Notes under the pieces: model-generated
Databases searched by the model: none
What the model was told of the DNA's origin: nothing
What the model saw: the letters and a program-made list of their open reading frames with translations, nothing else
From: Myxococcota bacterium
GTDB taxonomy: Bacteria; Myxococcota; Myxococcia; Myxococcales; Myxococcaceae
Assembly: GCA_049322255.1 (NCBI GenBank)
Contig: JBMORE010000187.1
Span: 1 to 50,875, forward strand
Length of the DNA stretch: 50,875 nt
Direction of reading: 5' to 3'
Position numbers and translations under genes: made by a program
Part shown: positions 43,755-50,875 of the stretch, in pieces
Position numbering within the stretch: the first letter of the stretch is position 1
Layout: every line of letters begins with the position of its first letter

Positions 43755-43848
43755 GCTTCCTCCCTTCAGCTCCTACCTGGTCGTACCTTGACCCACCTGC
43801 CTCCGCCAGTTTTTGACCGTGGGGTCGGCGGTCTTTAAGAAGACAAGG

Positions 43849-44904
43849 GTGCAGCCGGAGGAGCTCATCGAGTCGGCGAAGGCGCGGGCGGAGGCGTTGG
43901 CTCCGCCCAGCGACGTCGAACGGGAGCGGCTTCGGGGCGAGTGCGTGGCTTTCTTCGACCAAGTGCCCGAGCCGCCTGTGTACCGGCGCGCCAACGACCC
44001 TTCACGCGCGCTCGCCCTGGCGTTGACGCAACGGGGCGAGGAGCTGCTTGCCCGCTGCATGTCCGCCTCGCGCGAAGACGGCGGCTCGGGGCTTGCGCGC
44101 TTGGTGCCTGTCTTGAAGGCCTACCTCGCCGCGCTGTGCCACACGGCCGAGGGGCGCTTGGGATCGGCGGAGAATGCGTGGCGTGAGGGCCTGTTGCTCG
44201 AGCGGGAGGCGGTGCGCGGTCGCTCGCTGTGTGTCCATTCCACCGCCGAGCCGGTGCCGGTGTTCGACAAGGCGACGCGCACCTCACGCTACGACCCTCG
44301 GCCCGAGCCGACGGTAACGGTGCGACTCGCCTGTCCGGCGGCGGGTTGCGCCAAGGAGGCGGCCTTTGCTCTGCCGGGGCGCCTCGCCTTGCACGCGCTG
44401 ACTTGTCCTAGCTGCCAGAGCCCTTTTTTGGCCTACGTCGGCGAGGTGCGCGCGGCGGAGAAGAGCTCTCCGGTGCAAGGGGTGGTGAGCTACAGGCTGC
44501 GCATCGAGGAGCCTGACGGCACGGTTTCACGGGTGGAGATAGACGACACCAGCGGTGCGGAGCTGTCGGTGGCGCGAAAGGACCAGGTCGCTTGCCTCTA
44601 CACCGCCCACCGGCAGCTGCGCGGCCTGCTCAACCTCTCCAGCGGCCGGGTGCTGTGGGTGAACCGGAGCGGCGCCTGCTTCGTGGCCACCGTGGCCTTC
44701 GGCGAGGACGCACAGGAGCTTGTTGCCTTCCGCGCCTTTCGCGACCGAGTTCTCCTGCGCCACACCGCGGGAGCGGCGGCGGTGCGGCTCTACTACCGCC
44801 ATGGCCCCGCATGGGCGCGCTTTGTCGCTCGGCGGCCGTGGCTCTTGGCGGCGACCCGTTACGGCTTACGCCGGTTGCACCACCACTTGGAGCGGCGCGG
44901 ATGA
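43849..44904 (+). CDS. CFI-box-CTERM-type domain protein with Cys-rich segment
   Basis: C-terminal GACFVATVAFG...L..FR.FRD..L.......VRLYYR.GP..A; internal CPAAGC and CPSC; start uncertain (43813 or 43849). Confidence 0.82.
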   Translation: MQPEELIESAKARAEALAPPSDVERERLRGECVAFFDQVPEPPVYRRANDPSRALALALTQRGEELLARCMSASREDGGSGLARLVPVLKAYLAALCHTAEGRLGSAENAWREGLLLEREAVRGRSLCVHSTAEPVPVFDKATRTSRYDPRPEPTVTVRLACPAAGCAKEAAFALPGRLALHALTCPSCQSPFLAYVGEVRAAEKSSPVQGVVSYRLRIEEPDGTVSRVEIDDTSGAELSVARKDQVACLYTAHRQLRGLLNLSSGRVLWVNRSGACFVATVAFGEDAQELVAFRAFRDRVLLRHTAGAAAVRLYYRHGPAWARFVARRPWLLAATRYGLRRLHHHLERRG

Positions 44905-45437
44905 AATCGGGCTGGCTCGGCCAGGCGTTCACCGTGTTGCTCGTCGTGGGCCTTCTTTTGGGCGCCATCTACCAGGGCGTGCAGGAGGCGAAAGAAAAAC
45001 GCCTCCTTTCCACGGGCGAGCTGGCGCCGGACTTTGGGTTGCGCCGGCCTGACGGGAGCCAAGTGACGCTCTCCTCTCTTCGCGGGCAGGTGGTGATGCT
45101 CGACTTCTGGGCGACCTGGTGCCCACCTTGCGTTCGCGAGATGCCCTACCTGACTCGGTTGGCCAAAGAGTACGAAGCCAGGGGCCTGGCCTTCGTCGCC
45201 GCCAACAATGACGAGCCGGACGAGGCAGAAGGCGCCGTCGAGGCCTTCGTCTCCTCGCGGGCGCCCGAGCTTCGGCGCTACGTCGCTTTTTCCGACGAGG
45301 TCACCAGCCAGCGCTACCGGGTGCGGACGCTGCCGACGGTGTACGTCATCGATCGCCAGGGGCGGGTGGCCAAGGCGCATGCCGGCCTGGCCTCGGAGAC
45401 GATGCTGCGCCGGTGGATCGAGGAAGCACTGAGGTAA
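44901..45437 (+). CDS. TlpA/ResA-like disulfide reductase
   Basis: N-terminal TM, APDF.L, LDFWATWCPPCVREMP, LPT.YVID..G. Confidence 0.95.
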   Translation: MKSGWLGQAFTVLLVVGLLLGAIYQGVQEAKEKRLLSTGELAPDFGLRRPDGSQVTLSSLRGQVVMLDFWATWCPPCVREMPYLTRLAKEYEARGLAFVAANNDEPDEAEGAVEAFVSSRAPELRRYVAFSDEVTSQRYRVRTLPTVYVIDRQGRVAKAHAGLASETMLRRWIEEALR

Positions 45438-45475: not shown

Positions 45476-47122
45476 CTACTTCGCCCCCGGCTCCGGTTTC
45501 TTCTCCCCCTCCTCCTTCACCGCCTCCTCTTCGCTGACCAAGCGGAACTCGGTGCGGCGATTCTTCGCGCGGCCCAGCGGGGTGGCGTTGTCGGCGATCG
45601 GCTTGTCGAAGCCGAAGCCGGCGCTCTTGAGCCGGTTCTTGGCGATGCCCTTGTTCAGCAGGTAGTTGACCACGGCCTGGGCGCGGCGCTTGGAGAGGTC
45701 GAGGTTGTAGGGGCGGGTGCCGCGGTCGTCGGTGTGGCCCTCGACGAGCACGGGGCCTACCTCGGGGTTGTCGGCGAGCACCTTGTAGACGTCGTCGAGC
45801 ATCTTGAAGGACTGCGGCAGGATGGTGGCTTGAGCGGTTTCGAACTGAATCTGCCCGCGTACACGAATACGTTCGGACTCCAGCTCTACCTCGGGCTCTT
45901 CGGGCACAGGGCAGCCCTCGTTCTCCACCGGGCCGGGCTCGTCGGGGCACTTGTCGACGATGTCGGGCACGCCGTCGCCGTCGCGGTCGGGACAGCCCTC
46001 GAGCTCACCGGGGCCGGGGTCCATCGGGCAGCCGTCTTCGTTGTCGTTCACTCCGTCCTTGTCGTTGTCCGGCTCCGGACAGCCGTCGGAGTCCTCGAAG
46101 CCGTCTTTGTCTTCGGGCACGTCGGGGCAGGCATCGACATGGTCGGCGATACCGTCGCCGTCGCGGTCGTCGAAGGTGAAGTCGTAGCGAACCCCGGCCA
46201 AAAGGCGAAACGCCTCCCGCCCGTAGCCGGTGGTGGTGCCCAGCCCGCGACCCAAGGTGACCTCGGCGCCCCAGTTGCCACGCACTTTGCCGCGCACGCC
46301 CAGAAGCAGCTCCCACGGCGTTTTGAGCGAGTCGGCCTGGTCGAAGGTGAAGGGCCGCTCGGTCGGGGTGACCAGGTGGGTCTCGCCCACGAACTGCACC
46401 TCGGTGAAGCGACTGAACGAGGGGAGGTCGACGATGGCTCCTGCGCCGGCGGTGAACTCGTTGCCGATGAAGAGGTTGATGAACTGGGCGTGGTAGGGGC
46501 GCAGCCGGTAGCCCATGTTGGCGAGCACCCGCACCGGGCCGAAGGCTCGTTCAGCCGCGAGCCTGGGAGCGAAGACGAAACCGGCGTCGCCGATGAAGCT
46601 TTGCGCCGACGGAGCGGGCAGTCGCACCTCGGCCACCGCCGCCAGCCCGAAGAGTGCCTTGGCCGGGTCGAGAATGGACACGCGTGGCAACACTCGCAGC
46701 GAACCGACGCCCAGCGCCGACGGCCCCGCTGTGCGAAAGCCCTGCTGGGCGAGCAAATCGAAGTCGTTCACCTGGGCGAGGGTCAGCGGCAGGTGTGCTC
46801 CCAGCTCCAGCTTGGGGAGCAATTGGTAGCTGCCGAAGAGGTGAAGGTCGGTGCGAAAAGGAACCAGGTCGCCCAGCTTTTCCTGCCCCAGCTTGAGCGC
46901 GAGCATGCCCACGCCCATGTCGAACATCGCGGCGAAGCGGAAGCTCTTCGGCCCGCGGAAGGTGGCGCCTTCGAGGCCCACGCCGCTGTCCATCGCGGTG
47001 GTCTGCTTGACGGGAAAGAGATCGAAACCCTTGCCGAAGGCGTCATGCGTGGCATGGGCCAAGGGGGCCGTCACGAAAACGGCGAGAAGCGTGAGTCGAC
47101 GCGCGGCGTAGGTCGCTGTCAT
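45476..47122 (-). CDS. OmpA-family outer membrane protein (beta-barrel + thrombospondin type 3 repeats + OmpA_C)
   Basis: Signal peptide; DRDGDGI.D..D.CP repeats; VEGHTD, YNLDLSKRRA, GFG..KPI, RAKNRR.EF. Confidence 0.93.
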   Translation of the reverse strand: MTATYAARRLTLLAVFVTAPLAHATHDAFGKGFDLFPVKQTTAMDSGVGLEGATFRGPKSFRFAAMFDMGVGMLALKLGQEKLGDLVPFRTDLHLFGSYQLLPKLELGAHLPLTLAQVNDFDLLAQQGFRTAGPSALGVGSLRVLPRVSILDPAKALFGLAAVAEVRLPAPSAQSFIGDAGFVFAPRLAAERAFGPVRVLANMGYRLRPYHAQFINLFIGNEFTAGAGAIVDLPSFSRFTEVQFVGETHLVTPTERPFTFDQADSLKTPWELLLGVRGKVRGNWGAEVTLGRGLGTTTGYGREAFRLLAGVRYDFTFDDRDGDGIADHVDACPDVPEDKDGFEDSDGCPEPDNDKDGVNDNEDGCPMDPGPGELEGCPDRDGDGVPDIVDKCPDEPGPVENEGCPVPEEPEVELESERIRVRGQIQFETAQATILPQSFKMLDDVYKVLADNPEVGPVLVEGHTDDRGTRPYNLDLSKRRAQAVVNYLLNKGIAKNRLKSAGFGFDKPIADNATPLGRAKNRRTEFRLVSEEEAVKEEGEKKPEPGAK

Positions 47123-47221: not shown

Positions 47222-48763
47222 CTAGTTCTCCATGAAGACCTGTGCGTCTTGGATTCGAATCAGCTGAGGGTGCATCGGCAGTGGCTCGCGCTCGAGGGTT
47301 TTGTCCTTCTTTGTCACTTCGGCGGGCTTCGACGTCGGATAGCGAATGGGCGAGGGTTTCTTGCTCGCCAAGCGGGCCTCGAGGTCCTCGGCGTCTTGGG
47401 TGACGTAGACGAAGTTGAGCTTGGAGGGTGTCAGGTGCCGGGCGGCGGCTTGCTGGAGCGCGTGGGGCGTCATCGTCGCCAGCGCCTGGCGGTAGCCCTC
47501 GAGAAAGCCCGGGGTGCCGTAGAACAGCTCGTCGATGGCCAAGCCCAGCCGCCGCTGGTCGGTCTGCTCCCACAGGCGGGTGTAGCCGATGAGGAAGCCG
47601 CGGGCGGTCTCCATCTGCTCCAGCGGCGGAGGGTTCTTCGTCAGCTCCGTCAAGTAGTGCAGCGCGCCGCGGGTGGCGAAGATCGCGTTGGGCGGCTCCA
47701 CCGGGCGAAGCCAAATGGAGAAGTCCTGCTCGGCACGGGCCACGTTGAAGCTGGGCTGGGTGCCCCAGCCCTCCTGGTGGAAGTGCTCGGCGTAGGCATA
47801 GTCGCCGTAGTTGAGGCCGCGCTTCTCCCGCAGCTCCTGGAAGAGCACCCCGTGGAACTGGCGATGCTCGCCCAGGTAGGAGAGGGCGAAGGCCACCGCG
47901 TAGAAGTCGGGGTCGCCCCGGCGGAGCGGGTACGTGTAGCCCATCGAGACCGCGGTGGAGAGCGTGTTCTTCTTCAAGATGAGCGTGTGCCCCTGCACTC
48001 CGGGCGCGGGAGGTAGCTCCACCCTCGGTGCACCGGTGGCGGGCAGCTTAGCCAAACGCTTCTTCACTTTCGCCTCCAGGGCGGAGTCCACGGCGCCTGC
48101 CAGGCCGATCACCAGGCGGTCTTGCGTGAAGACGCGAGCGGCGTGAGCTTTGACGTCCTCCAAGGTGATTGCTTGCAGCCCCTGCACGGTCCCACCGGGG
48201 AAGTGGCGGTAGGGGTGGTCGGGGTAGAGCAGAGCATCGAGGGCAATCTTTCCCAGCTCCTCGTCGTCTTCGGCGCGCAGGCGGTTCTTCACCGTGTTGA
48301 TCGCATCGGTACGCAGCCGCTCGAGCTCCTTGAGGTCGAAGCGGGGCTCGAGCAAGACGTCGCTGAAGATGTCGAAGAAGCGTTGGAGCCGGTCGGAGTG
48401 CACCCGGCCCACGAAGACGGTCACCTCTTTGTCGGTGGAGGCGTCGAGCTCGGCGGCCATGGGGTAGAGCGCGTCGAGTAGCTGGGCCGAGGAGAGCTTC
48501 TTCGTTCCACCCTCTGCCATCAGTTGCGCGGTGAGCGCGGTGAGGCCCTCCTTGCCCTTGGGGTCGTCGACCGACCCGGCGTGGAAGACCAGCCGGAAGC
48601 TGACGATCGGCTTGTTCTTCACCGGCAACAGCACGGTGGTCATCGGTGGCGGCCGATTCAGCGGGCGATAGGGAACCGGAACGGGTTTGGGAAGGGGTGG
48701 AAGGGTGGCGGCGCAGGAGACGAACACGCCGACGGCGGCGAAGCGCAACGCGACACGGACCAT
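47222..48763 (-). CDS. M16 peptidase, non-catalytic subunit (lipoprotein)
   Basis: Lipobox FVSC; GS..DP.GKEGL..LTA (no HxxEH); LREKRGLNYG R/Y motif. Confidence 0.9.
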   Translation of the reverse strand: MVRVALRFAAVGVFVSCAATLPPLPKPVPVPYRPLNRPPPMTTVLLPVKNKPIVSFRLVFHAGSVDDPKGKEGLTALTAQLMAEGGTKKLSSAQLLDALYPMAAELDASTDKEVTVFVGRVHSDRLQRFFDIFSDVLLEPRFDLKELERLRTDAINTVKNRLRAEDDEELGKIALDALLYPDHPYRHFPGGTVQGLQAITLEDVKAHAARVFTQDRLVIGLAGAVDSALEAKVKKRLAKLPATGAPRVELPPAPGVQGHTLILKKNTLSTAVSMGYTYPLRRGDPDFYAVAFALSYLGEHRQFHGVLFQELREKRGLNYGDYAYAEHFHQEGWGTQPSFNVARAEQDFSIWLRPVEPPNAIFATRGALHYLTELTKNPPPLEQMETARGFLIGYTRLWEQTDQRRLGLAIDELFYGTPGFLEGYRQALATMTPHALQQAAARHLTPSKLNFVYVTQDAEDLEARLASKKPSPIRYPTSKPAEVTKKDKTLEREPLPMHPQLIRIQDAQVFMEN

Positions 48764-50103
48764 CACTTGCCCTCCTTGGCGCTGAAGGTCAGCACGGTGC
48801 GGTTCTGCTCGGTGAGGTGCTTCTGGGCGAAGGCGACCAGCTGCTCGGGCGTCACCTGAGCGATGTTCCGGTAGTGCAGGTCGAGCGCGTTGGGCGCTCC
48901 CAGAATGCCGGCGTACCAGGCGAGCTGGAGAGCCACCTCGTTGGGAGTCTCCAGCGACATCAGGAGGCCGTAGCGCAGGTTGTCCTTCACCGCTTGTACG
49001 CGGTTTTTGTCCACTTTGCCCTTGGCGAGCTCGGCAATCGCCCGGTCCAGGGCCGCACGCACCGTCTCACGGTGGTTCTCCGCCTTGAGGGTGACGGCGA
49101 GGGAGAAGAGCGCAGGGTCGCGGTGCTCCGAAAAGCCTGAGCCGACGCTCTCGGCGAGCTGCTTTTCCAGGACCAGCTCCTTGTGCAGCGGGCTGATGGG
49201 ACCAGTGAGGTAGGCGGCGAGCACGTTTTGAATGGCCCCATCGCTCGTCGCCATCGCCGTCGCTGGGGTGTGCCAAGCATGAATGTGGCGAGGCAAAGTG
49301 GGTGTTTCCCACTGCACTTGGGCGGAGCGGGCCTGGGTCTGTGGCGGCTCGTGAGGAATCTCCACCGTGGCCGCTTTGCCCTTCCATGGTCCGTAGTGCT
49401 TCTTCACCCACTCGATCACCTTTTCGCCGTCGAGCTCTCCCACCACGAAGACGAACGTGTTGTCCGGGGTGTACCAGCGGTGGAAGAACTCCTTCGAGTA
49501 CTCGTAGTATTCGGGCATCTTCTTGATGTCCTCGTAGTAGCCCAGCGTGGTGTGCCCGTAAGGGTGCTTGGTGAAGGCGGTGGCCACGAGCGTCTCCTCA
49601 ATCTTCAACCCCGGGTCGGCGGCGTTCTTGTGGTACTCGCCCAAGACCGCCTTCGCCTCCGTCTGGAAGGTGGGTTCACTGTAGGCAAGGTTGATGAAGC
49701 GATCGGCTTCGAGCTCGATGAGCTTCTCTAAGCCCGAGGTGGGACCGGCCACGTGATAGACGGTCACGTCGTCTGAGGTGAAGGCGTTCTCGTTGAAACC
49801 CAGCTTGCCTAAAGCCGCCTCGCGTACCCCTTCGGGGTGGGTTGGGGTGCCCTTGAACATCATGTGCTCGAAGAAGTGGGCGAAGCCCGAGTGGCCTGCC
49901 TCCACTTCGTTGCGCGAGCCCACCCGCACCACGGTGTAGTAGGCGACCAGGCCCGGGGAGGAAAAGGGCACCCGCACCAGGGTGAGCCCGTTGTCCAACC
50001 GAGTGACTTGAAGCGGGTAGGGGAAGAACGACTTGGCTTTCTGAGCGTGGGCCGGCGTGGCGAGCGTGAAGGCCACCGCCAGGGCGAAGGCAGAGCGGAG
50101 CAT
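48763..50103 (-). CDS. M16 (pitrilysin) peptidase, catalytic subunit, secreted
   Basis: Signal MLRSAFALAVAFTLATPAHA; LDNGL, VGSRNE, GFAHFFEHMMFKGT, NAFT..D.T.Y. Confidence 0.95.
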   Translation of the reverse strand: MLRSAFALAVAFTLATPAHAQKAKSFFPYPLQVTRLDNGLTLVRVPFSSPGLVAYYTVVRVGSRNEVEAGHSGFAHFFEHMMFKGTPTHPEGVREAALGKLGFNENAFTSDDVTVYHVAGPTSGLEKLIELEADRFINLAYSEPTFQTEAKAVLGEYHKNAADPGLKIEETLVATAFTKHPYGHTTLGYYEDIKKMPEYYEYSKEFFHRWYTPDNTFVFVVGELDGEKVIEWVKKHYGPWKGKAATVEIPHEPPQTQARSAQVQWETPTLPRHIHAWHTPATAMATSDGAIQNVLAAYLTGPISPLHKELVLEKQLAESVGSGFSEHRDPALFSLAVTLKAENHRETVRAALDRAIAELAKGKVDKNRVQAVKDNLRYGLLMSLETPNEVALQLAWYAGILGAPNALDLHYRNIAQVTPEQLVAFAQKHLTEQNRTVLTFSAKEGK

Positions 50104-50181
50104 CAAGTAAACCTCAGCCGACCATTTAGCCGGCTGAGGCTCCTTACAGAACCGGACGTGCGGTTTTCCCGCATCCGGCTC
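50102..50181 (-). ncRNA. group II intron catalytic domains V and VI
   Basis: DV GAGCCGGATGCGGGAAAACCGCACGTCCGGTTC (50181-50149; AGC triad, AC bulge); DVI AAGGAGCCTCAGCCGGC..GTCGGCTGAGGTTT-A-CTT then GAT; branch A at 50108. Confidence 0.92.
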
Positions 50182-50875
50182 TTCGGTTGGTGTTTCCGTA
50201 CAGCACGGTGCTCCGAGGTGATGTCAATCAGCTGCTCGCCGTGGGGCGGGAGTGGGAGCGGATTGAAGTGCAGCTTCCGCTCGAACTGCTGCCAACTGAA
50301 GGAGCGTTTCTGGCTCCTGCGGTTGAGCCACTTGAAGAGTGCGCCGATGCAAACGAAGCGGAAGTGACAGAGCTTCGCTTCGTTGAAGCGCACCGCGAAG
50401 TACTCAAAGTGGCCCCTGAGCCGTGCACGTACATCGGCCCAGAGCTGCTTGAGCGGCTTTTTGCTGCGCGTCTTCTTCACCCACTCGGTGAAGGCTTGCA
50501 TGCTGCGGTGGAGCCTCTTCGCGGCCGTCTTGAGCTTCAACAGCCGGCCGCCCTGCTTGTCCCTGCCCCAGTAGAAGTCGAACCCGAGAAACGAGACGAC
50601 CCCTTCGGGGGCCCTGGACGAGAAGGGCACGATGGCACTCTTCGCGATGTTCAGCGACAGCCCGGCCTCTTGCAGTCGGAGTTGCAGCGCCGCCTGAAAG
50701 GACCTGGCCGTTTCCTCGTCGGTGAAGACGAAGACGGCGTCATCGGCATAGCGAACGAATTCCCCGCGACCGGCGTATTCCGCGTCGAACCACCCGTCGA
50801 GGAGATGATGCAGGCAGATGTTGGCCAGCATCGGGCTGACAGGAGAACCCTGAGGGGTGCCACGCTCGGTTTCTG
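50103..50875 (-). CDS. ltrA: group II intron reverse transcriptase/maturase (5'-partial, no endonuclease domain)
   Basis: GTPQGSPVSPMLANI.LH, VRYADD, FLGF, domain X LRGHFEYF...KWLNRRSQ. Confidence 0.93.
   Translation of the reverse strand, partial: ETERGTPQGSPVSPMLANICLHHLLDGWFDAEYAGRGEFVRYADDAVFVFTDEETARSFQAALQLRLQEAGLSLNIAKSAIVPFSSRAPEGVVSFLGFDFYWGRDKQGGRLLKLKTAAKRLHRSMQAFTEWVKKTRSKKPLKQLWADVRARLRGHFEYFAVRFNEAKLCHFRFVCIGALFKWLNRRSQKRSFSWQQFERKLHFNPLPLPPHGEQLIDITSEHRAVRKHQPKSRMRENRTSGSVRSLSRLNGRLRFT

Follow-up and report, generated by a model that had tools for sequence, protein, structure and literature searches.

Why would the reverse transcriptase (RT) gene of a group II intron run on through the catalytic core of its own ribozyme and stop exactly where the interrupted gene begins? 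This question is raised by the right end of a 50,875-nucleotide (nt) stretch of DNA from a Myxococcota bacterium (GenBank assembly GCA_049322255.1, contig JBMORE010000187.1, positions 1 to 50,875; the whole stretch is referred to as the window), where an intron-encoded RT on the minus strand meets the gene of an M16 peptidase. We consider it likely that the intron whose 3' end lies in the window is a mobile member of a class E-related group II clade, and that its unspliced RNA would serve as a relay of three open reading frames (ORFs), i.e., an upstream ORF (uORF), the RT gene and the host gene. Judged by sequence comparison, the architecture is real, conserved and selected, and appears to be that of a promoter-targeting group II intron whose ribozyme is largely or wholly translatable.

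The RT frame of the window (minus strand, ...KSRMRENRTSGSVRSLSRLNGRLRFT; also given as ...HQPKSRMRENRTSGSVRSLSRLNGRLRFT) spans ribozyme domains V and VI (DV and DVI) and terminates at the TGA at 50105-50103, the A at 50103 being shared with the ATG (50103-50101) of a 446-amino-acid (aa) M16 peptidase. The original prediction had described this crossing of DV-DVI and the stop-start overlap, and both were found again in the sequence, with support from Rfam: RF00029 (group II DV-DVI) matches 50183-50102 with 52.6 bits (gathering score 40). Folding of the DV-DVI region gave z = -5.3. The Rfam match and a test of the gamma-gamma' pairing place the last intron base at 50102 and the intron end at ...ACTTGAT. 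Thus, the A and the T of the peptidase ATG belong to the intron and the G alone is exon. Group II features found at the locus are the AGC triad of DV, the bulged A of DVI, the AY end and an RT/maturase ORF with a YADD motif. The junction is made up as follows.

50103..50875, minus strand: RT/maturase ORF of the group II intron, 3' portion, no endonuclease domain; 256 aa present, contig end at 50875
50739..50750, minus strand: YADD catalytic motif, intact, read from sequence and translation
50149..50181, minus strand: ribozyme DV with its AGC triad, translated within the RT tail as SRMRENRTSGS (Rfam and fold)
50104..50146, minus strand: ribozyme DVI, likewise translated; basal stem 50146-50143 with 50107-50104 (Rfam and fold)
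50108, minus strand: branch-point A, bulged, seventh base counted from the intron end (Rfam and fold; invariant in the alignment)
50111..50115, minus strand: Shine-Dalgarno (SD)-like GAGGT, part of the 3' strand of the stem of DVI and 7 nt 5' of the ATG; present in the window's subgroup, not in most of the lineage
50103..50105, minus strand: RT stop codon TGA, intron bases -4 to -2 (sequence, lineage loci)
50101..50103, minus strand: rebuilt start codon, intron AT plus G 50101, the first 3' exon base and intron-binding site 3 (IBS3); 3' splice site 50102/50101
48763..50103, minus strand: host gene 1, M16 peptidase of 446 aa with a signal-peptide-like N-terminus (domain search, orthologues)
47222..48763, minus strand: host gene 2, second M16 peptidase, in TGATG overlap with host gene 1 at 48765-48761

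The RT domain matches RVT_1 and TIGR04416, under the full-length cut-off because the window ORF is cut by the contig end; the RT of full-length relatives has about 477 aa, and GIIM gave a weak match in one of three full-length homologues. The lineage RT has no endonuclease domain, and its C-terminal 25 residues are the translation of DV-DVI. A contig of run X1 covers 49858-50130 with zero differences from the window; X1 is possibly the source sample, so this agreement is not independent.

Relatives were collected with the 477-aa homologue P0001, which shares 90% identity with the window RT, and loci were fetched for the best 80 of 146 genome and the best 80 of 546 metagenome confirmed relatives; a search of viral contigs with P0001 found no relatives. 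The lineage was defined by at least 47% identity to P0001, plus the frameshifted locus L056, a criterion independent of the counted feature. It comprises 104 loci, mainly from Myxococcota and Bdellovibrionota, of which 14 are cut off by contig ends, leaving 90 with a complete 3' end. In all 90, the RT stop is the terminal TRA. Homologues thus keep the stop at the last intron bases, and because it is conserved there, the objection that the original prediction had raised against itself, a recent stop loss or sequence error with homologues stopping before DV, fails; this candidate was ruled out by the 90 loci together with the X1 contig and the C-termini of homologues. Among 88 distinct ends, the terminal stop is TGA in 49 and TAA in 39, and TG follows in 83 to give TRATG. 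The distance from DV to the stop takes the values 67, 70, 73 and 76 only (33, 39, 5 and 13 of 90), i.e., DVI varies in length by steps of three. Within the DV-DVI body of 77 distinct sequences, the RT frame contains no stop, while the other two frames are interrupted by a stop in 50 and 47 of the sequences. The T of the stop is invariant (77/77), though its stem partner is G in 30 sequences and C in 3, and most outgroups carry C at this position. In the alignment, this shows selection on the RT stop beyond the demands of RNA structure. Outgroup class E introns have their RT stop before DV in 18 of 19 cases, within DV in one and at the terminal position in none, a count that excludes many loci without a DV match. 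A C-terminal Thr after the translated DV-DVI was present in 115 of the best 120 protein homologues (1907 matches), a list biased toward tailed proteins because the query included the DV-DVI tail. Two shorter introns, L190:60-1804 (1744 nt) and L052:1840-3620 (1780 nt), have deletions within the ORF and intact ends.

The original prediction also held that an SD in DVI would be exposed by translating ribosomes. The window does have an SD-like word there, its GAGGT scoring -6.8 kcal/mol against this genome's anti-SD. Most of the lineage does not, as just 17 of 88 distinct 3' ends contain strong SD words. Neither these ends nor the host ATGs (17/65) support a conserved DVI SD as the general mechanism.

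Boundaries of the lineage introns read AT|GTGCG...TACTTRAT|G, placing the intron between codon bases 2 and 3. The alternative cut ATG|TGCG...ATG| yields an identical spliced product, and the boundary was therefore tested. Names of domains and of exon-binding sites (EBS) follow group II conventions and were checked by covariation in the cases stated. In 65 of 70 introns an A at the gamma position goes together with a terminal T, and in four sister introns a G goes together with a terminal C. The EBS1 loop is AT(G) and covaries with the exon (TCG/CGA in L036, GGG/CC in L129 and L130, CGA/TCG in L152, CGT/ACG in L123), and EBS3 is a C facing G in 55 rows. Watson-Crick pairs with EBS1 at -1 to -4 occur in 66, 58, 46 and 34 of 71 rows versus 59, 49, 34 and 17 in shuffles, about seven mis-anchored rows being retained in this count. 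An intron that ends in ATG and inserts after the codon was ruled out by gamma-gamma', by the EBS1 register and by five copies with a base other than G after AT. The GUGYG 5' end and the EBS1-IBS1, EBS3-IBS3 and gamma-gamma' pairings were all found in relatives, the 5' half of the window copy being unassembled.

Some members depart from this pattern. In L152:85-2038 and L154 the 5' exon ends in CGA, matching TCG in EBS1, and spliced exons would carry no ATG; the intron-made ATG opens 146 codons, the uORF begins at the intron's own GTG, and the host gene may depend on the unspliced intron. A subfamily consisting of L036, L129 and L130 has a changed EBS1 and lies at non-ATG sites, with the terminal stop kept and a 154-codon frame open from the intron's first GTG.

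What kind of site does the intron enter? Among 73 distinct 5' exons, 58 end in AT and nine in GT, and C precedes the A in 64%. A TAnnnT box ends 5-8 nt before the A in 36 of the 73 (at exactly 6 nt in 25), and TA alone is found in 56. The corresponding control values are 2.6% and 10.9% for 3190 ATGs of the flanks, and 3.1% and 10.7% for 3131 first ATGs of this genome's long ORFs, which is a rough call of start codons. A -35-like signal (T-rich, then G) is located at -39 to -35. Of the 73 5' exons, 5 contain SD-like words, compared to 31% in controls, and an SD of -6 or better is present in 3 of 68. A TANNNT located some 12 bp in front of a start has been read as leaderless (PMC3160421). Given the -10 box and the near-absence of SD, the lineage appears to target the transcription starts of leaderless genes, and the spacing of the box would put the transcription start at the A of the ATG.

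The rebuilt ATG opens at least 50 codons at 45 of 58 sites; the other frames do so at 6 and 27. Of the long host ORFs, hand-picked, 16 of 22 match unrelated Pfam families, several of them from residue 3-4 (PFK, DivIVA, YacG, Exo_endo_phos), and the interrupted ordinary genes include phosphofructokinase, IspG, DivIVA and a Mur ligase. The TA box is present at seven of eight sites where the ATG frame is short, and L126:1576 and L128:1945 are tandem insertions, in which a second lineage intron, beginning with GTGCG, takes the place of the 3' exon, position +2/+3 being reused. The landmark therefore looks like the start site rather than the codon as such. The intron probably inserts between +2 and +3 of transcripts from a sigma-70-type promoter, usually at the AT|G of a leaderless start.

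At the 5' end, exon AT and intron G create a new leaderless AUG. Of 79 distinct 5' halves, 59 keep the frame from this AUG open for at least 120 codons, compared to 0 and 6 for the other two frames; five of these six are copies with changed EBS1, in which the frame begins at the intron's own GTG. Lengths of the uORF take 25 different values from 138 to 183, shuffles are open in 1.6%, and none of four sister class E introns has an open 5' frame. The RT start lies 446-548 nt from the intron 5' end and its frame is offset by 2 from the AUG in 64 of 79; the RT is thus out of frame and reached by overlap. Among 65 full introns, the uORF overlaps the RT start in a TRATG in 26 and terminates in RTGA in 12, 5 nt before an in-frame ATG in 7 and otherwise in 1. 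The RTGA group represents the window's closest kin, L031 included, in which the junction shifted from TAATG to GTGA with the overlap kept. A coupled uORF and an intact RT are both present in 44 of the 65, and 44 of 45 RT starts are preceded by an SD of -6 kcal/mol or better. Substitutions per codon position amount to 0.145/0.167/0.163 in the uORF versus 0.143/0.100/0.342 in the RT (16 disjoint pairs). Since the uORF lacks codon-position bias, it is its openness that is kept and not its peptide. A functional uORF protein was ruled out by this absent bias and by a Pfam search of the peptide, which gave no family in the four of four tried. A single-sequence fold of the L031 5' half gave z -1.7. 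The interrupted start codon itself, the targeting of leaderless starts and the 5' ribozyme half that is open in most relatives all go beyond the original prediction.

Ten members (L045, L051, L056, L144, L150, L153, L157, L161, L163 and L174) begin with GTGCGCCGAG, as sister class E introns do. They keep promoter targeting and the terminal stop, and their 5' frame is closed, possibly an older state.

Several identical intron copies were present at unrelated sites of this one genome, which suggests mobility. The 3' ends (n=5; contigs C187, C73, C35, C101 and C76) all read ACTTGAT|G, and their ATGs open different ORFs of 446, 932, 217, 508 and 176 codons, respectively. These five ends, the terminal Thr of the homologues and the 90 lineage loci rule out a coincidence. 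The 5' ends (n=4; C171, C65, C12 and C73) all read CAT|GTGCG, and three have a TA box. The closest named relatives are Myxococcaceae and Archangiaceae genomes. The assembly breaks within the intron repeats. Genes upstream in peptidase orthologues were mapped to contigs, none of which has an intron 5' end. C65 has a TAGGGT box resembling that of some orthologues, yet there is no link to the window copy. Intron-free peptidase orthologues have a TA box 5-9 nt 5' of the ATG in 11 of 19 cases and often look leaderless. One copy, L027 (G000 C73:20838-19995, minus strand), has its first 125 nt joined straight to the middle of the RT gene with about 1.1 kb missing, and precedes a 932-aa exonuclease/helicase-like ORF; this deletion is either real or an assembly join.

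How might such an intron and its host gene be expressed? We lean slightly towards a model in which the lineage targets the RNA polymerase open complex and the whole ribozyme doubles as mRNA, stop-start overlaps joining the uORF (domains DI-DIII), the RT (DIV-DVI) and the host gene. The host gene would be expressed unspliced, splicing would proceed with a dinucleotide triphosphate as 5' exon or just release a lariat, and ribosome traffic would set the balance between message and ribozyme. In this relay, transcription would start at the A and a ribosome would initiate on the leaderless AUG made of exon AU and intron G. It would traverse DI-DIII, producing a disposable peptide, re-initiate on the RT, traverse DV-DVI and re-initiate at TRATG on the rebuilt host AUG. 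Expression of the host gene would then take place without splicing, and the RT would borrow the host promoter and initiation. The host gene brings no SD of its own and no longer stands at the 5' terminus, and the unspliced message offers no other evident initiation route. The two M16 peptidase genes of the window are themselves joined by a TGATG (48765-48761, minus strand), so that coupling could extend beyond host gene 1 and the relay would run on into the second peptidase. In tests of ATGA and TGATG overlaps, 13 of 14 gene pairs were strictly coupled, and the dependence on an SD varied (PMC6728339).

We infer the coupling, the splicing block and the true transcription start from this arrangement, and some steps are more tentative. 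Ribosome transit would unfold DI-DIII and DV-DVI, the latter as proposed in the original prediction, so that splicing may need a gap between initiation rounds or binding of the maturase. A 5' exon of about 2 nt may ligate poorly, which would make the bypass necessary; RmInt1 splices in vivo at 0.07% (PMC3035460). Most tentatively, since three to four base pairs cannot give the promoter bias, the endonuclease-less ribonucleoprotein would probably find its target in DNA opened by RNA polymerase at the promoter.

Several points weigh against the relay. The 5' half and the 5' exon of the window copy were searched for in the assembly and are absent, and its uORF and promoter are inferred from relatives, namely L031 (91% RT identity to P0001) and the genome's four other 5' ends. 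EBS1 pairing reaches -3 and -4, and weakly -5 and -6, which is 5' of the presumed start site; this fits DNA targeting, and longer 5' exons would explain it as well. Of 65 full introns, 19 have a closed uORF, which is therefore not required. At the 3' end, the frame of the rebuilt ATG is shorter than 50 codons at 13 of 58 sites, five loci (L034, L036, L129, L130 and L173) rebuild no ATG and retain the terminal stop, and just 17 of 65 full introns provide the host ATG with an SD of -6 or better. DVI length is only weakly controlled for by the outgroup, where 14 of 18 introns share one length. As the sequences are related, counts were repeated over 20 clusters of 70% RT identity, where they hold: G follows the intron in 20, the uORF is open in 12 of 17 and the TA box is present in 13 of 16. 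Six RNA runs, seen as contigs alone, contain at most 0.05 of the window's words and are neutral as evidence; no spliced form, start site or empty site was found in these contigs, whose coverage is too small to bear either way.

Polarity from untranslated RNA is established, and this counts for the unlikely alternative that the open frames keep ribosomes on the intron against Rho termination or RNase, re-initiation being secondary and the host gene mostly expressed from spliced RNA. A uORF peptide with neither codon-level selection nor a Pfam family (4/4 tried) and a terminal stop kept in copies without a host ATG would agree with it, as does the protection of Ll.LtrB RNA by ribosome association (PMC3851717). 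However, ribosome coverage needs neither an exact stop-start overlap at two junctions nor the overlap-keeping shift from TAATG to GTGA, and for leaderless host genes without SD it leaves the unspliced message with no other evident initiation route. A need of the RT itself for its 25 residues, e.g., in DNA or RNA binding, with the stop position following protein function, is very improbable. The tail is basic, ends in FT, ST or LT in 114 of the best 120 homologues, and class-specific C-terminal extensions do matter in class D (PMC3552965). Its substitutions nevertheless lack a third-position excess (0.067/0.109/0.086), as RNA constraint predicts, its length varies by 3 residues, and both the target choice and the uORF would be left unexplained.

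The target bias has to be weighed against a simpler origin as well, to which we give only a small chance: insertion at any CAT|G-like site via short EBS1/EBS3 pairing, with the promoter bias due to survivorship and TRATG a by-product of AY|G and the DVI stem. The EBS1 AT(G) and the EBS3 C alone would indeed select YAT|G, an A-T end next to a G exon yields ATG without translational selection, and three copies with changed EBS1 occupy non-ATG sites. Yet SD-led start codons would be equally tolerable and are nearly absent as targets (5/73; 3/68 at -6 or better). Survivorship also fits poorly with a TA box at seven of eight sites that lack a long ATG ORF, and with the tandem copies at L126 and L128 that reuse +2/+3. 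The T of the stop is kept against a G or C partner in 33 of 77 sequences, and an open 5' frame is not explained by a by-product.

Further into the window, downstream of the peptidases, lies an ordinary pair: an OmpA-family protein with thrombospondin type 3 repeats (45476-47122, minus strand), faced by a TlpA-like redoxin gene (44592-45437, plus strand). A 363-aa ORF at 43813-44904 (plus strand) has CxxC motifs and a C-terminal CFVATVAFG...R.FRD; it had no Pfam match at E 0.01.

Bacterial group II introns are thought to persist in mobile DNA or after terminators, since their splicing is poor. The lineage described here does the opposite: it is found at the first codon of ordinary genes, and the host seems not to need its splicing. 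A 1.9-kb ribozyme held in frame across 25 length variants represents a rare dual constraint of RNA and reading frame. Start-codon or promoter recognition, the minimal 5' exon length and the competition between translation and ribozyme folding on one RNA could be tested directly with this lineage; how introns of the IIB1 clade recognise the start codon or promoter is stated to be unknown (PMC12584367). For annotation, RT C-termini like SRMRE.RTSGSVR flag a host start codon, and an integrator that seeks promoters and keeps the gene behind it active could serve as a tool.

To which known introns is the lineage related? In a quick IQ-TREE analysis of RTs (70 rows, leaving out 4 of 74 picked loci that lack an intact ORF), with the Shimodaira-Hasegawa-like approximate likelihood-ratio test (SH-aLRT) as the sole support value, the lineage (21 rows) forms one clade with support 100. 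It groups with L192, the Acaryochloris marina pREB3 intron, at SH-aLRT 99, apart from the references of classes D, F (g2, g3) and G (g1); the tree contains one directly labelled E reference, and classes A, B, CL and ML have no labelled row. The class E label of the pREB3 intron stems from supplementary Table 3 of PMC8919778, and the tables of PMC3552965 supplied the references for D, F and G. Class E (IIE) introns share with the lineage the endonuclease-less RT, the GUGYG start, the AY end and the EBS3-IBS3 pairing; RNA features described for IIE are an alpha' at the end of the DId3 stem-loop, an extra bulge, a 5-nt DV loop and EBS2 (PMC3753933). In contrast to the lineage, the RT stop of class E sister and outgroup introns precedes DV, and these introns have an AC end, ordinary 5' exons and closed 5' frames. 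Neither start-site targeting nor a translated ribozyme is mentioned for class E in the accessible text of PMC3753933 and PMC8919778. The ORF of most bacterial introns is confined to DIV, whereas DV-DVI is crossed in 90 of 90 loci here, a departure from that arrangement and not an exclusion from the RT class. A full-text search, in which most subscription papers were not included, found no literature on promoter- or leaderless-targeting introns or on translated ribozymes, and prior mention is possible; the accessible parts of PMC4424553, PMC5894124, PMC3753933, PMC8919778, PMC7923331 and PMC3851717 contain no such design.

The junctions resemble known termination-reinitiation at ATGA and TGATG (PMC6728339), both types being present at the uORF-RT and RT-host boundaries. 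Unlike the overlaps studied there, the upstream ORFs here overlie catalytic RNA and would couple a mobile element to any gene it lands on. Class C (IIC) introns are alike in their context-directed targeting, short exon pairing and many unrelated sites (PMC12584367, PMC7306698). They differ in that their landmark is a terminator and not a promoter, in their RT class and in the ribozyme, which is translated here. Insertion at terminator hairpins was not apparent in the aligned 5' exons, which show -10 and -35 signals and AT or GT ends; no scan for terminators was made. The start/stop-codon clade of IIB1/CL1 introns (Avi.groEL, EcKTE56.groEL) likewise inserts in or next to start or stop codons (Michel et al. 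2007, as described in PMC12584367). For the groEL introns the insertion point is also between codon positions 2 and 3, and what they rebuild is a stop (PMC12584367), where this lineage rebuilds a start. Introns of that clade have a CL1 RT with an endonuclease and a subdomain Ia of 300-700 nt (PMC12584367, PMC4028801), neither of which is found in this lineage: its alignment has no subdomain Ia insertion, the whole 5' half measuring just 446-548 nt. The lineage thus works partly like the IIB1/CL1 clade and is not a member of it. EcKTE56.groEL homes to one gene (PMC12584367), whereas the lineage described here enters many unrelated genes at their promoters.

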